Assembly (NCBI GenBank): GCA_003104935.1
Contig: PQAE01000003.1
Span: 9,350 to 73,349 of the forward strand
DNA from: Parcubacteria group bacterium
GTDB lineage: Bacteria > Patescibacteriota > Patescibacteriia > UBA1558 > GWA2-36-10
Reading direction: 5' to 3'
Length of the DNA stretch: 64,000 bases
Positions 56,613 through 64,000 of the stretch are shown piece by piece. The notes below the pieces were generated by a model. That model was given only the letters and a program-made list of their open reading frames with translations, did no database searches and was not told the origin of the DNA. Made by a program: the position numbers and the translations under genes. Each line of letters begins with the position of its first letter. Position 1 is the first letter of the stretch.

Positions 56613-59426
56613 TTACAGATAAAGATTGAGGACCTCGTCTTTGACATTGAATATTCTTTGGCCAAAGAACAAGCGGAATAATTCACCCCAGGTGGAAATA
56701 TAGCGGCCCTTGCCATGTTCAATATGATAGATGTCGGGCAGACAGCCGCGCAGTAGCGAGCCGTCAGGAAACTTGGTCTTACCAAGAATATCTTTATCCC
56801 ACCACTGTTTGCCTTCGTGGCGCCAATCCAAGGTGCATTCTATCTGCTCTTGCGTTATTTTAGCACCCAAGACCTGAGGAGCGGGAGTACAGTTTGTTTT
56901 AGTGATAAAAGTCATCTCCGAGCTGGTAAAGACGCTATCGCCTACGCCCTGCATTTTGATCCGGTAATAATAAGTGGTGCCTGGTTGGAGGTTGGGCAAA
57001 GTTACAGAATGACCCGTTTTTTGCACTCCATCTTTGTATTCAAAATCATAATTGCCGCCGCTCTTTGTACCGTAGATTATCCAGGACACTGAGGCGTTGG
57101 TTGTGGTCCAGCTTATGCTAGCGTTAGTACATTGCGTACCGGCCTGAATATTATTGGCGCCGCTGATCTGGACTCCGCCACCGCCGCCACCGCCGCCAGA
57201 ACTAGAACCTCCGCCGCCGCCAGGATTATCTATAGTGCGGCAATTGGTGTTGCAAATCCTGGAGCCGTTAGGACCGGCATCGCATTCCTCGCGTCCGTTG
57301 ACTACATTGTCTCCGCAAAATTCATTGCTTTGGCAGATATTCCAACGGCAATAGAGTTCGTCACTGCCCTGAGACTGGACCGGAGGCATGTGGCAGGTCT
57401 TGGTACCGGCATAACCGGCTTCGGTAGTACAGGCCTGAGCCGGCGTATAATCACATTCCTCGCCCGCTTCTATCCGCTCATTGCCACAAACCGGCTGAGG
57501 AGGAATAATTATCATGCAAGTAGTGCTACAGACGCTGGAGCCATTGGGACCGGCATCGCATTCTTCGCGCCCGTTGACTGCATTGTCTCCGCAAAATTCT
57601 GTAGAAATACAACTATTCCAAGTGCAATATGGTTGCGGTTCGACTAAAGTCATAAGCGAATCGGTCAGCGCCATATGACAAGTCTTGGTGCCGGAATAAC
57701 CGGCCTCGGTAGTGCAGACTGTCGGCACATTGCCGTCACACTGTTCGCCCTGATCCACATGGCCGTCACCGCAATATGGTTGCGGCGCGCAATCCAGCTG
57801 AAAAGGAAATCTATCAAAACAAGCCTGTTCGGCGCTCTGTCCCTGACCCAGATACATCGCTACATAAGACAAGTCGGAGGCGTCGATATAGCCATCGCGA
57901 TTTAAATCATAAGTAGTCCAATACTTGGGAGTAGTAGAATTTGATCCCAAAGAATCGGCAATCCCCTGCTTCAAGCCGTTGCACCAGTCAATTTGCAAAT
58001 AGTTATCGCAATTGAATTGGTAATTAGGATTTTCAAATTGCTGGTGGCAGGAATTATTATCGTTAACACCTTTCCAGGCCGCCAGAGCGGCTAAATCAGA
58101 ACCATCAACAATATTATTATTATCTATATCAGGGACAGTATTGCCCGGAGCTTTCGGGCCCATCGCTTTCTCTATGATTCCCTGCAAAGCACTACACCAA
58201 GGTGAAACCGCCGGCTCCACTGGTTTTTGGCAACTAAGAGCTAAATCAGCAAAGGGCTGATAATGCTCGGCATAGCGGTCAAAACAATCTTGGCGGGCGT
58301 TTGTACCCAGATAAGCGGCTATAGCTGAAACGTCAGAGGCGTCAATAAAGCCGTCGCCCTGATGAGCCGGCCCGTTTATATCAAAGAAAGAAGAATAATT
58401 GGCGTCACCGGTTTTGGTGCCAAGGGAATCAGCAATGCCTTTTTTTAATCCGGCGCACCAATCAATACTCAAATAATTATCGCAGTTAAAACGCAAACCA
58501 TTGTCGTTAAATTGCTTTAGGCAGGTGGCGTCAGATTTATCGGCATACCACTTGGACATCTGGGAAAGATCAGAACTGTCTACACCGCCGGCGTTATCAA
58601 CGTTTGGTACCGGGGTCTCAGGCGTAGTGCCCAGAGCCGATTCTACGATGCCGTAGAGGGAACTGCACCAGGGCGACAAAGTAGTTTCTACCGGCACCGG
58701 ACAATTTAGCTCTAAGGGATACTGACTAAAACAGGCTTGACGGTTATCGCTCCCTAAATAAGCGGCCACGGCCGAAAAATCCGAAGCGTCAACCTTATTA
58801 TCGTGGTTTAAATCAAAGATAGCCGAATAACGGTTCTCGCCGGACTTTGAACCCAGAGAATCTATCACTCCCTGTTTTAAACCGGCACACCAATTAACTT
58901 GCAGATAATTTTGACAATTTACTTGCAAGCCGTCCTGCAGATCATAAAACTGTTGAAAACAATGGTCGTTTTTCCCCTCCTCATACCAATGCGTCATCTG
59001 TCCGTTGTCTTCCGAATTTACCTGACCGTTATTGTCCAGGTCGGGCACAGAAGTCTGGGCAATGGAACCCAGATGAAAATCCACTATGCCTTTAAGGGCA
59101 CTGCACCATTGGGAAAAATTCTGATCGTCGTCATTGTCGTTATCATCACCATCATGATCGTCATCACCATCATGATCATCGCTATCATCGGAGCACTTGC
59201 CTTCATAATCGCCGTGATCCAAATGAGCGGAAACGGAATTTTCATCAGTCTCAATGCCGTGATAACCGCCGTGCCCGGTGCGATGACAGATCTCAACATG
59301 TCTATTTTCCTCGTCAGCTTTGACGCTGGGCAAACCAGTAAAGTGAATAGCCAGTGCGCCCGTATTTAAGAAAAACAAAGACAGCGCCGCCAAGATAATA
59401 AAAATATGATTATATTTTTTTCTCAT
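56613..59426 (-). CDS. Giant secreted cysteine-rich repeat protein 1 (937 aa; putative adhesin)
   Basis: Signal peptide; His/Asp-rich tract (DDSDDHDGDDDHDGDDNDNDDD); four roughly 110-aa modules each with dockerin-like Ca loops (DLNHDNKVDASDFSAVAAYLG etc.) and four Cys; four Myxococcus-type Cys repeats (CGD..V..GE.CD); Gly linker; Fn3-like domain; shared C-terminal domain. Confidence 0.7.
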   Translation of the reverse strand: MRKKYNHIFIILAALSLFFLNTGALAIHFTGLPSVKADEENRHVEICHRTGHGGYHGIETDENSVSAHLDHGDYEGKCSDDSDDHDGDDDHDGDDNDNDDDQNFSQWCSALKGIVDFHLGSIAQTSVPDLDNNGQVNSEDNGQMTHWYEEGKNDHCFQQFYDLQDGLQVNCQNYLQVNWCAGLKQGVIDSLGSKSGENRYSAIFDLNHDNKVDASDFSAVAAYLGSDNRQACFSQYPLELNCPVPVETTLSPWCSSLYGIVESALGTTPETPVPNVDNAGGVDSSDLSQMSKWYADKSDATCLKQFNDNGLRFNCDNYLSIDWCAGLKKGIADSLGTKTGDANYSSFFDINGPAHQGDGFIDASDVSAIAAYLGTNARQDCFDRYAEHYQPFADLALSCQKPVEPAVSPWCSALQGIIEKAMGPKAPGNTVPDIDNNNIVDGSDLAALAAWKGVNDNNSCHQQFENPNYQFNCDNYLQIDWCNGLKQGIADSLGSNSTTPKYWTTYDLNRDGYIDASDLSYVAMYLGQGQSAEQACFDRFPFQLDCAPQPYCGDGHVDQGEQCDGNVPTVCTTEAGYSGTKTCHMALTDSLMTLVEPQPYCTWNSCISTEFCGDNAVNGREECDAGPNGSSVCSTTCMIIIPPQPVCGNERIEAGEECDYTPAQACTTEAGYAGTKTCHMPPVQSQGSDELYCRWNICQSNEFCGDNVVNGREECDAGPNGSRICNTNCRTIDNPGGGGGSSSGGGGGGGGVQISGANNIQAGTQCTNASISWTTTNASVSWIIYGTKSGGNYDFEYKDGVQKTGHSVTLPNLQPGTTYYYRIKMQGVGDSVFTSSEMTFITKTNCTPAPQVLGAKITQEQIECTLDWRHEGKQWWDKDILGKTKFPDGSLLRGCLPDIYHIEHGKGRYISTWGELFRLFFGQRIFNVKDEVLNLYL

Positions 59427-64000: not shown

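Follow-up and report, generated by a model that had tools for sequence, protein, structure and literature searches.

Tandem paralogous genes for predicted secreted, cysteine-rich proteins with a dockerin-related module in a Parcubacteria genome

Related systems

Dockerins (PF00404; PDB 5g5d_B, 2ozn_B and 2ccl_B) are extracellular domains with a two-fold internal duplication and two 12-residue Ca loops, each followed by a helix (an F-hand), with the ligands at loop positions 1, 3, 5, 9 and 12. Canonical members owe stability to a non-covalent N-to-C 'clasp' (PMC3821032). Within the Patescibacteria, the envelope proteins essential to the epibiotic Saccharibacterium Southlakia epibionticum include some with dockerin and Fn3 domains. 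They were interpreted as serving adhesion or glycan targeting, with host glycans as the proposed target, to be adhered to or degraded (PMC10633639). Modular adhesins of Gram-positive bacteria combine an N-terminal signal peptide with distal binding domains, Fn3 or SpaA stalks and a conserved C-terminal element, and Myxococcus-type proteins with TIGR02232 or DUF4215 repeats are secreted, acidic and marked by CG[DN]..[VI]..GE[EQ]CD motifs.

Features of each recur in three consecutive minus-strand genes, G1, G2 and G3, within a 64,000-nucleotide stretch of DNA (the window) that NCBI labels as a Parcubacteria metagenome-assembled genome, in keeping with the small-genome bacterium supposed in an earlier note made from the letters alone. 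Their common module shares with dockerins the loops, ligand positions and duplication, and differs in being 140 aa long versus ~70, in an extra helix opening with an invariant W-C ahead of each F-hand, in four invariant Cys, and in being internal and tandem (up to three copies) where a dockerin is single and terminal. The resemblance to S. epibionticum, specifically to SEML1_0315, is one of domain types between different Patescibacteria classes, and the function given in PMC10633639 is itself speculative. Unlike the Gram-positive adhesins, G1-G3 have no LPXTG/sortase signal and no LysM, SH3b, SLH or CWB domain, and end in a C-terminal domain (CTD) of uncharacterised fold. From the Myxococcus-type proteins they differ in their Parcubacterium host, in a globular CTD in place of the MYXO-CTERM tail, and in the joining of the repeats of G1 and G3 to dockerin-like modules.

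The gene array

The earlier note had described a tandem array of giant secreted paralogs, each followed by its own terminator. The three ORFs are present (Table 1) and paralogy is borne out, G1 being 60% identical to G2 and 59% to G3 over the shared parts, with modules and tails at 44-79%. 'Giant' is an overstatement for proteins of 937, 656 and 1376 aa. All are acidic, Cys-rich and modular (pI 4.2-4.5, Cys 3.0-4.7%; for G1, pI 4.45 with 44 Cys). Terminators follow G3, where the hairpin was overlooked by a pattern scan and found by reading the sequence, and G1; none follows G2, the short gap to G1 being devoid of structure. Because terminators are confined to those two positions, G2 and G1 are probably co-transcribed in an operon-like manner.

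Table 1. Features of the three-gene array, in window coordinates
Feature	Coordinates	Strand	Basis or detail
G1 terminator	56549..56589	-	14-bp stem + U-run; dG -26.5, z -5.2
G1, complete, 937 aa	56613..59426	-	ORF; Pfam/NCBIfam
G1 CTD, aa 876-937, PQVLGAK motif before it	56616..56801	-	alignments; AF2
G1 Fn3, aa 752-845	56892..57173	-	Pur_ac_phosph_N 37.2 bits vs cut-off 30; AF2 beta-sandwich pLDDT ~90; Foldseek prob 1.0
G1 Gly/Ser linker, aa 736-751	57174..57221	-	sequence
G1 Cys-rich acidic repeats, aa 551-733, CGD..VNG.EECD type	57228..57776	-	TIGR02232 23.4 bits, cut-off 20.8; motif positions
G1 module 3, aa 408-547; copy used for modelling	57786..58205	-	
G1 module 2, aa 251-403; 5-residue insertion in Ca loop 2	58218..58676	-	alignment
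G1 module 1, aa 105-243, ~140-aa double F-hand, dockerin-like	58698..59114	-	alignment, HMM domain hits
G1 signal peptide, aa 1-37	59316..59426	-	MRKKYNH, h-region IFIILAALSLFFL, then ...VKA/DEE (slash, predicted cleavage); read from sequence
G2-G1 intergenic gap	59427..59462	-	36 nt, no structure (dG 0)
G2, complete, 656 aa, PWB39000.1	59463..61433	-	ORF, Pfam
G2 CTD, aa 595-656	59466..59651	-	alignment, profile
G2 modules 1-3, aa 64-204, 225-378, 383-536	59826..61244	-	alignment, HMM hits
Direct repeats inside G2, 2 x 272 nt, 99% identical, 474 nt apart	59838-60109 + 60312-60583	.	repeat search
G2 signal peptide, aa 1-49, very basic n-region	61287..61433	-	sequence
G3 terminator	61589..61622	-	GCCACCG...CGGUGGC + U7; dG -21.8, z -4.4
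G3, 3' part, aa 594-1376 of 1376-aa PWB39001.1	61649..64000	-	ORF, full-length protein
G3 CTD, aa 1313-1376	61652..61843	-	alignment, profile
G3 Gly linker, aa 1183-1190, + Fn3, aa 1191-1283	61931..62233	-	Pur_ac_phosph_N 33.2 bits vs cut-off 30
G3 Cys-rich repeats, aa 1087-1175, motif CGNEKVEGDEQCD	62255..62521	-	TIGR02232 15.8, DUF4215 16.4 bits, below cut-off on window part
G3 predicted beta-propeller (SGL/NHL type), aa 598-985	62825..63988	-	SGL 37.8 bits vs cut-off 26.3

The window edge cuts G3, with no in-frame stop upstream of 63985, and the full-length protein adds a signal peptide, a Cys repeat, a single module, a DUF642-like region, a SpaA-like domain (above the SpaA cut-off) and more Cys repeats. 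G1 runs from its signal peptide through a His/Cys motif, an acidic linker and three dockerin-like modules to Cys-rich repeats, a Gly linker, Fn3 and CTD. G2 is simpler: signal peptide, three modules, a Pro/Gly-rich linker with VLGEK, and CTD.

Export signals and probable extracellular character

Sec-type signal peptides, claimed before, are recognisable by inspection and hydropathy in G1, G2 and full-length G3, each with a basic n-region, an 11-13-residue h-region and an AxA-like site, the c-region being unusually long (~15-20 aa past a conserved LWNTG-like motif). In G1 a hydrophobic window (KD19>1.6) occurs at the N-terminus only. No further hydrophobic segment, lipobox or LPXTG was seen when the three sequences were searched for them, nor was a TM anchor or sortase motif found; near the C-terminus, in place of an LPXTG-like motif or the hydrophobic segment of sortase and MYXO-CTERM substrates, there is a globular domain of ~60 aa. 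Searches with Pfam and NCBIfam assigned no catalytic family. The earlier note had named assignment to a cytoplasmic enzyme family, or absence of signal peptides, as what would overturn its view, and neither was encountered. G1-G3 resemble extracellular modular proteins that are secreted, bind Ca and are rich in disulfides, and they lack an enzymatic family assignment; Ca binding and disulfides are inferred from the residues that the modules conserve.

A dockerin-related module

Dockerin-like Ca loops had been claimed, and in part the claim holds: Dockerin_1 scores 41.1 bits in G1 and 30.6 in G2 against a cut-off of 22.9 (full-length G3, at 21.0, is just under it), though these are not canonical ~70-aa dockerins. 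Taken singly, ten of 14 modules reach E<=0.01, each match spanning one F-hand and never the whole model. An alignment of 65 full modules and an AF2 model of G1 module 3 (pLDDT 88.7) define instead an all-helical unit of ~140 aa with internal duplication and four invariant Cys, the two halves of which are homologous (hhalign probability 99.2%). Each half has the Ca-ligand pattern D-x-[DN]-x-[DN]-G-x-[VI]-[DN]-x-x-D, and the loop consensus over the 65 modules, V.D.N.D..VNLSD and FDLN.DG.INLSD, gives the two F-hands expected of a dockerin relative. The loops of G1-G3 are mostly canonical; besides the insertion in G1 module 2, loop 2 carries five extra residues in G2 modules 2 and 3, and position 5 of loop 1 is Ala in G1 module 2.

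Among structural matches dockerins are the best and the only coherent group, at 37-58 of 140 residues superposed, TMq <= 0.28 and Foldseek E >= 0.4. The F-hands lie ~75 residues apart, not within the compact three-helix ~60-70-aa unit of a dockerin. A canonical EF-hand is not seen either, since in the AF2 model the preceding helix stops ~10-20 residues ahead of the loop; EF-hand_6 scores above its cut-off for one G1 loop (29.9 bits versus 25), and the modelled arrangement is F-hand-like rather than EF-hand-like. The invariant Cys pair of each half, with Cys4-Cys52 and Cys75-Cys127 (module numbering) as the pairings expected, may be a covalent counterpart of the dockerin clasp. Of 1.84 billion cluster representatives, about 46 contain the full module, and the sampled family members are all singleton clusters from metagenomes. 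The module is an undescribed one, related to dockerins yet not a dockerin.

Cysteine repeats, Fn3 and the C-terminal domain

Myxococcus-type Cys repeats, poly-Gly linkers and Fn3-like domains had been ascribed to the array as a whole. They are confined to G1 and G3, a profile scan and the sequence revealing none of the three in G2. TIGR02232 is above cut-off in G1 and DUF4215 in full-length G3 (37 versus 27), and the repeats of G1 and G3 are 69% identical at the DNA level. For Fn3, Pur_ac_phosph_N exceeds its cut-off in both proteins and the fold, from AlphaFold2 and Foldseek, is the expected seven-strand beta-sandwich, with 77 PDB matches at E<=0.001 (TMt up to 0.79), the 50 of these that were listed all being of Fn3 type. 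The two Fn3 domains are 75.5% identical.

The tails of G1 and G3 consist of the Gly linker, Fn3, a PQVLGxK motif and the CTD, and it is this last domain of ~60 aa in which all three proteins terminate. It was found in 40 sampled proteins, its last copy reaching the exact C-terminus, and while heads differ widely among family proteins the tail is conserved. The AF2 model of the G1 copy is beta-beta-beta-alpha-beta-alpha at pLDDT ~90. No match was found in Pfam, NCBIfam or PDB sequences, a profile search against the PDB gave chance hits at E>=0.3, and 48 copies compared with Pfam at E<=10 showed no recurring family. CTD alignments used as homology queries returned three short fragments only, in a word-indexed search ill-suited to 60-aa queries, and Foldseek matches to a model of Fn3 plus CTD were dominated by Fn3.

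Synteny and expansion

In eight of eight related loci a single module gene stands directly upstream of Fpg, and in all six that extend far enough it directly follows the gene for a CAP-domain membrane protein. Given that single gene before Fpg in the relatives, the triplet is a lineage-specific mosaic expansion, and the comparative check for rapid paralog turnover suggested earlier thus comes out in favour of it. Identities between the paralogs are mosaic, with shared DNA segments at 70-99%, though each has its own N-terminus and CTD; the CTD of G3 is 80% identical to that of P0001, from a related genome. Between modules 2 and 3 of G2, identity is 95% in the C-terminal halves against only 57% in the N-terminal halves, and the 272-nt direct repeat is a recent copying of the module's second half within the gene. 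The mosaic identities and this repeat together show recent shuffling. The locus itself is vertically conserved beside housekeeping genes in all relatives.

A G2-like protein, P0010, from the same sample as P0001, is encoded at an unrelated locus. The label 'uncultured Gammaproteobacteria' attached to relatives is doubtful, as their gene order around Fpg, SdpI and DUF5663 agrees with that of the window, and NCBI assigns the window's proteins, like P0015, to Parcubacteria. Nothing pointed to a diversity-generating retroelement or phase variation, and Pfam scans of the window contain no reverse transcriptase.

Proposed function and alternatives

The reading we favour, at somewhat better than even chances, is that G1-G3 are Sec-exported, extracellular, non-enzymatic binding proteins of the Parcubacteria cell, stabilised by Ca2+ and stapled by disulfides. 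Their site of action is probably the cell surface. The variable head comprises one to three modules, to which G1 and G3 add Cys repeats and G3 the DUF642-like and SpaA-like regions and a predicted NHL/SGL propeller. It most likely binds an external ligand, for example a partner protein, a polysaccharide or something on the surface of a host cell. The conserved tail with its CTD most likely retains the protein at the cell envelope or assembles it there; PBP2, MreB/C and MurA-like proteins are encoded in the window, so a peptidoglycan wall would be available for non-covalent anchoring. The three genes would have arisen by duplication and module shuffling of one ancestral gene between the CAP-domain membrane protein gene and fpg. 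Host adhesion, put forward in the earlier note, is plausible by analogy, from the domain types and the Saccharibacteria precedent.

Acidic, repetitive proteins rich in Ca sites and sharing a conserved CTD could also be pictured as a Ca2+-dependent, self-assembling coat or sheath of S-layer type, the paralogs then being structural and not adhesins, and vertical conservation beside housekeeping genes suits such a core component better than an accessory adhesin. We consider this unlikely, as the head varies widely among close relatives, which have one to three modules and may or may not have a propeller, a DUF5011-type or a DUF642 domain; such variation is atypical of a lattice protein, and neither SLH nor a known S-layer domain was found with Pfam and NCBIfam.

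Cohesin-type scaffolding, the other role offered in the earlier note, fares somewhat worse. If the modules were true dockerins, they would dock on cohesin scaffoldins encoded elsewhere, in a cellulosome-like surface complex. PF00963 gave no match at E<=1e-5 in the 38 ORFs scanned from the window, which agrees with the earlier remark that no cohesin partner is visible there; with the threshold at E<=0.01, the six ORFs nearest the array and the conserved CAP neighbour were likewise negative. G1-G3 carry no CAZyme catalytic module and match no family of glycoside hydrolases, lyases or esterases. With a unit of twice dockerin size, widely spaced F-hands, poor superposition and an internal, tandem placement also against it, we regard docking of this kind as improbable.

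About as improbable is that at least G3 works outside the cell as a lyase, a lactonase or an enzyme that degrades glycans, for which the other modules bind carbohydrate or lend stability. The putative propeller that had been noticed in G3 scores above the SGL cut-off, though over short stretches of ~45 residues, about one blade, and with a weak similarity to Vgb_lyase (28.2 bits), a DUF642-like region (18 bits) and the SpaA domain it could point to an enzymatic or carbohydrate-processing role. Vgb_lyase, NHL (16.1 bits) and DUF642 are all below their cut-offs, however, and nothing in G1 or G2 is a candidate for a catalytic domain. Propellers of NHL type are often binding modules.

That the triplet is a mis-assembly of repeats from several strains, as segments of such high identity can confuse assemblers and the exact G1 sequence is absent from the protein collection (probably owing to a differing annotated start), is very improbable, since an independent Logan assembly of SRR5381729 recovers, on a single contig, CAP, an identical G3 and the beginning of G2, and the ORFs are intact with N-terminus and CTD distinct in each paralog.

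Significance for Patescibacteria

A bolder reading, which we put forward as a long shot, is that the locus is a surface-display system specific to Patescibacteria. The doubly membrane-anchored CAP/SCP-domain protein would then be the cell-side receptor for the CTD or the modules, the 140-aa module, a disulfide-stapled double F-hand, would represent a Ca-dependent recognition unit of a new class, with a non-cohesin partner on the host cell, and triplication would diversify host or ligand specificity.

In CPR bacteria, host attachment and recognition are largely obscure and surface proteins mostly unannotated. The module, compact, confidently modelled, putatively Ca-binding and related to dockerins, is a lead for structural and binding studies, and the CTD may be a new element for envelope anchoring or assembly. 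The CAP membrane protein and the modular secreted protein form a conserved gene pair, and the expansion of the latter from one copy to three marks it as fast-evolving, as expected of genes for host interaction.

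Gene organization and locus

Three consecutive paralogous minus-strand genes near the right edge of the window, here G1, G2 and G3, encode modular Cys-rich proteins for which 'giant', the term of an earlier note, overstates lengths of 937, 656 and 1376 amino acids. Nor is the third gene complete with a visible signal peptide, as that note implied. Upstream of the GTG listed for G3 there is no in-frame stop, so the gene continues past the window edge, and of its full-length product, PWB39001.1 (P0003), only residues 594-1376 fall inside. NCBI labels this protein, the G2 product PWB39000.1 and PWB38998.1, the Fpg flanking the array, 'MAG: Parcubacteria group bacterium' on an 84-kb contig. 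It is unlikely that the triplet is an assembly artefact, as L001, an independent Logan assembly, recovers the gene upstream of G3, all of G3 and the start of G2. A separate terminator for each gene had been proposed, and this holds for G1 and G3 (the latter escaped a pattern scan because of its long loop) but not for G2, since the 36 nt separating G2 from G1 are unstructured (dG 0); G2 and G1 are probably a single transcription unit.

Features of the window (coordinates of the window unless a locus is named)
Feature	Location	Strand	Description
G1	56613-59426	minus	ORF, 937 aa
G2	59463-61433	minus	ORF, 656 aa; identical to PWB39000.1
G3	61649 to window edge	minus	ORF, 3′ part only
Terminator after G1			hairpin and U-run; strong; dG -26.5 kcal/mol, z -5.2
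Terminator after G3			hairpin and U7; dG -21.8, z -4.4
Signal peptides	59316-59426; 61287-61433
PQVLGxK motif ahead of CTD	56802-56891; 59652-59825; 61844-61930
Overlapping ORFs	48117-50402; 50348-52429	minus	761 and 693 aa
Single ORF matching both	L002:14597-19021		1474 aa
MreB paralogues	9422-10435; 14045-15097
Small ORF	12801-13301
Sugar transferase cluster	181-9416
RNase P RNA	7502-7898	minus	bacterial class A; 179 bits
tRNA (one)	31875-31945	plus
CAP protein gene, this genome	L001:223-1959
CAP protein orthologues	L002:7515-9176; L003:1236-2891; L004:219-1889; L005:381-2114; L007:5291-6943; L008:5415-7208

The other genes of the window are housekeeping ones (glycosyltransferases, MreB/C, PBP2, RseP, RRF, RecJ, AckA, CTP synthase, LexA, FtsEX, CorA, Dus and Fpg). 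Four GT4 glycosyltransferases cluster with a Bac_transf sugar transferase and a DUF4012 protein in what is probably a locus for surface polysaccharide. GreA, PBP2, a small ORF without a Pfam match, and MreC lie between two MreB paralogues. Two ORFs overlapping by 55 nt in different frames both match one ORF in the related locus L002, which suggests a gene split or frameshifted in the window, or a fusion in L002.

Eight related loci come from collections of genomes and metagenomes (Fpg 52-66% identical). In all eight a single module gene lies directly upstream of Fpg, and in each of the six that reach far enough it is directly downstream of the gene for a CAP protein of ~550-600 residues, which has TSP3-type Ca-binding repeats at its N-terminus and a pair of TM helices at its C-terminus, besides a further TM helix, a CAP/SCP domain and beta-rich regions. 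The same slot here holds G3, G2 and G1, with the CAP gene just outside the right edge of the window (in L001), which makes the triplet an expansion specific to this lineage. The CAP protein is a candidate functional partner of the module protein. Three of the loci, L002, L003 and L004 (CAYUER01, CAYRIU01 and CAYVXP01; GTDB genome records), are labelled 'uncultured Gammaproteobacteria bacterium'; their gene order of CAP, module protein and Fpg (with SdpI/DUF5663 where covered) is that of the Parcubacteria-labelled window, and the label looks wrong.

Domain architecture and the dockerin-like module

G1 has in order a signal peptide, a short His/Cys motif with weak DUF7199 similarity, a poly-Asp linker, three ~140-aa modules with Dockerin_1/EF-hand matches (41.1 bits versus a cut-off of 22.9), four Cys-rich acidic repeats (TIGR02232, 23.4 versus 20.8), a Gly/Ser linker, Fn3 (Pur_ac_phosph_N, 37.2 versus 30) and a ~60-aa C-terminal domain, the CTD. 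In G2 the signal peptide is followed by three modules, a Pro/Gly-rich linker and the CTD, without Cys repeats. Full-length G3 runs from a signal peptide through a DUF4215 Cys repeat (37 versus 27), a single module, a DUF642-like region (below cut-off), a SpaA prealbumin-like domain (27.1 versus 23.1), further Cys repeats, a probable SGL/NHL-type propeller (37.8 versus 26.3 when only the part inside the window is scored), a beta-rich region, Cys repeats, a Gly linker and Fn3 to the CTD. The dockerin-like Ca loops and Myxococcus-type Cys repeats (in G1 and G3) that the earlier note had read from the sequence are thus borne out, and its propeller probably so, whereas its Gly linkers and Fn3-like domains occur in G1 and G3 but not in G2. 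The products of G1, G2 and G3 share an acidic pI of 4.2-4.5 and a Cys content of 3.0-4.7% and, outside the N-terminal signal region, have no hydrophobic segment, lipobox or LPXTG. Their signal peptides have, by inspection, basic n-regions and h-regions of 11-13 residues ending in a conserved LWNTG-like motif. Across the family (including the N-termini of P0001 and P0003-P0006) an LW(N/S)(T/S)G-like motif closes the h-region ~15-20 residues before an AxA-like site, an unusually long c-region.

Alignment of 14 modules, from G1-G3 and four relatives, gives a length of 137-154 residues, an invariant W-C-S-x-L start and two 12-residue loops whose Ca-ligand pattern is that seen in dockerins and EF-hands. 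The two halves are mutually homologous (hhalign probability 99.2%, E 3e-19), which makes the module a ~65-aa unit of helix, Ca loop, helix and Cys duplicated in tandem. Four Cys (profile positions 4, 52, 75 and 127) are invariant in 64-65 of 65 full-length modules, 39 of which have a fifth, and from this pattern we infer one disulfide per half. A confident AlphaFold2 model is all-helical with six helices (pLDDT 88.7, pTM 0.84). Foldseek gave 14 matches to it, the best ten being dockerins aligned over 37-42 columns (TMq ≤ 0.28) with non-significant E-values of 0.4-6.7, and structure searches found no full-length match to the whole module. The whole module is not a canonical dockerin, being twice as large, with an extra N-terminal helix in each F-hand and the F-hands ~75 residues apart. 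The termini of canonical dockerins are joined by a non-covalent stabilizing clasp (PMC3821032), and the Cys pairs of the module may have a clasp-like stabilizing role.

Family distribution, the CTD and mosaic paralogs

Searched exhaustively with a profile at E ≤ 0.001, 1.84 billion cluster representatives yielded 198 proteins, only ~46 with the full module and the rest confined to its generic Ca-loop-plus-helix part; a word-indexed search with G1 found seven. The module-family clusters looked up are singletons on one or two contigs each, and their sole taxon labels are Parcubacteria. Nearly all sampled members have a signal-peptide-like N-terminus and share a tail of Gly-rich linker, Fn3, PQVLGxK and one or two CTD copies, while their heads vary widely. 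PQVLGxK precedes every CTD copy family-wide, and in alignment A3 its V100, L101, G102 and K104 are invariant or at least 90% conserved. The CTD, present in 40 sampled proteins, matches nothing in Pfam, NCBIfam or PDB sequences; its model is beta-beta-beta-alpha-beta-alpha (pLDDT ~90), with a disordered linker between Fn3 and CTD. The end of the last copy is exactly the protein C-terminus, and because the CTD is always terminal and conserved against variable heads, it would be an anchoring or assembly element.

The paralogs are mosaics. Modules 1, 2 and 3 of G1 pair with those of G2 at 54, 73 and 67% identity, and the one module of G3 matches G1 module 3 at 79%. Module 3 of G2 is chimeric, its C-terminal half sharing 95% identity with the corresponding half of G2 module 2, a match that corresponds to a 272-nt DNA repeat (99%). 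The G3 and G2 CTDs share 44% identity with each other, less than with proteins of other genomes (80 and 69%, respectively). Together with the lineage-specific triplet, this supports the rapid paralog turnover foreseen earlier.

Function

On balance we lean towards G1-G3 being exported proteins that would act outside the cell in binding, be stabilized by Ca and stapled by disulfides, and combine a conserved tail with variable heads, expanded and shuffled within the lineage. That the proteins attach to a host or to a polymer is plausible from their domain types (SpaA, Fn3, NHL propeller, DUF642-like), from how members of the phylum live and from a precedent, an epibiotic Saccharibacterium with essential envelope proteins containing dockerin and Fn3 domains (PMC10633639). 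An S-layer-like structural role is possible, as is an enzymatic role for G3; no catalytic family is among the domain matches of G1, G2 or full-length G3. For cohesin-dockerin scaffolding the sequence examined gives no support: as the earlier note had remarked, no cohesin partner is visible in the window, there being no match in 38 window ORFs at E ≤ 1e-5 or in the six nearest the array at E ≤ 0.01. That note's interpretation is kept in part, for extracellular binding proteins and paralog turnover but not for scaffolding. What is new is a module family related to dockerins yet separate from them, an uncharacterized CTD and a conserved locus with lineage-specific triplication, and the locus is a useful lead for CPR surface biology.
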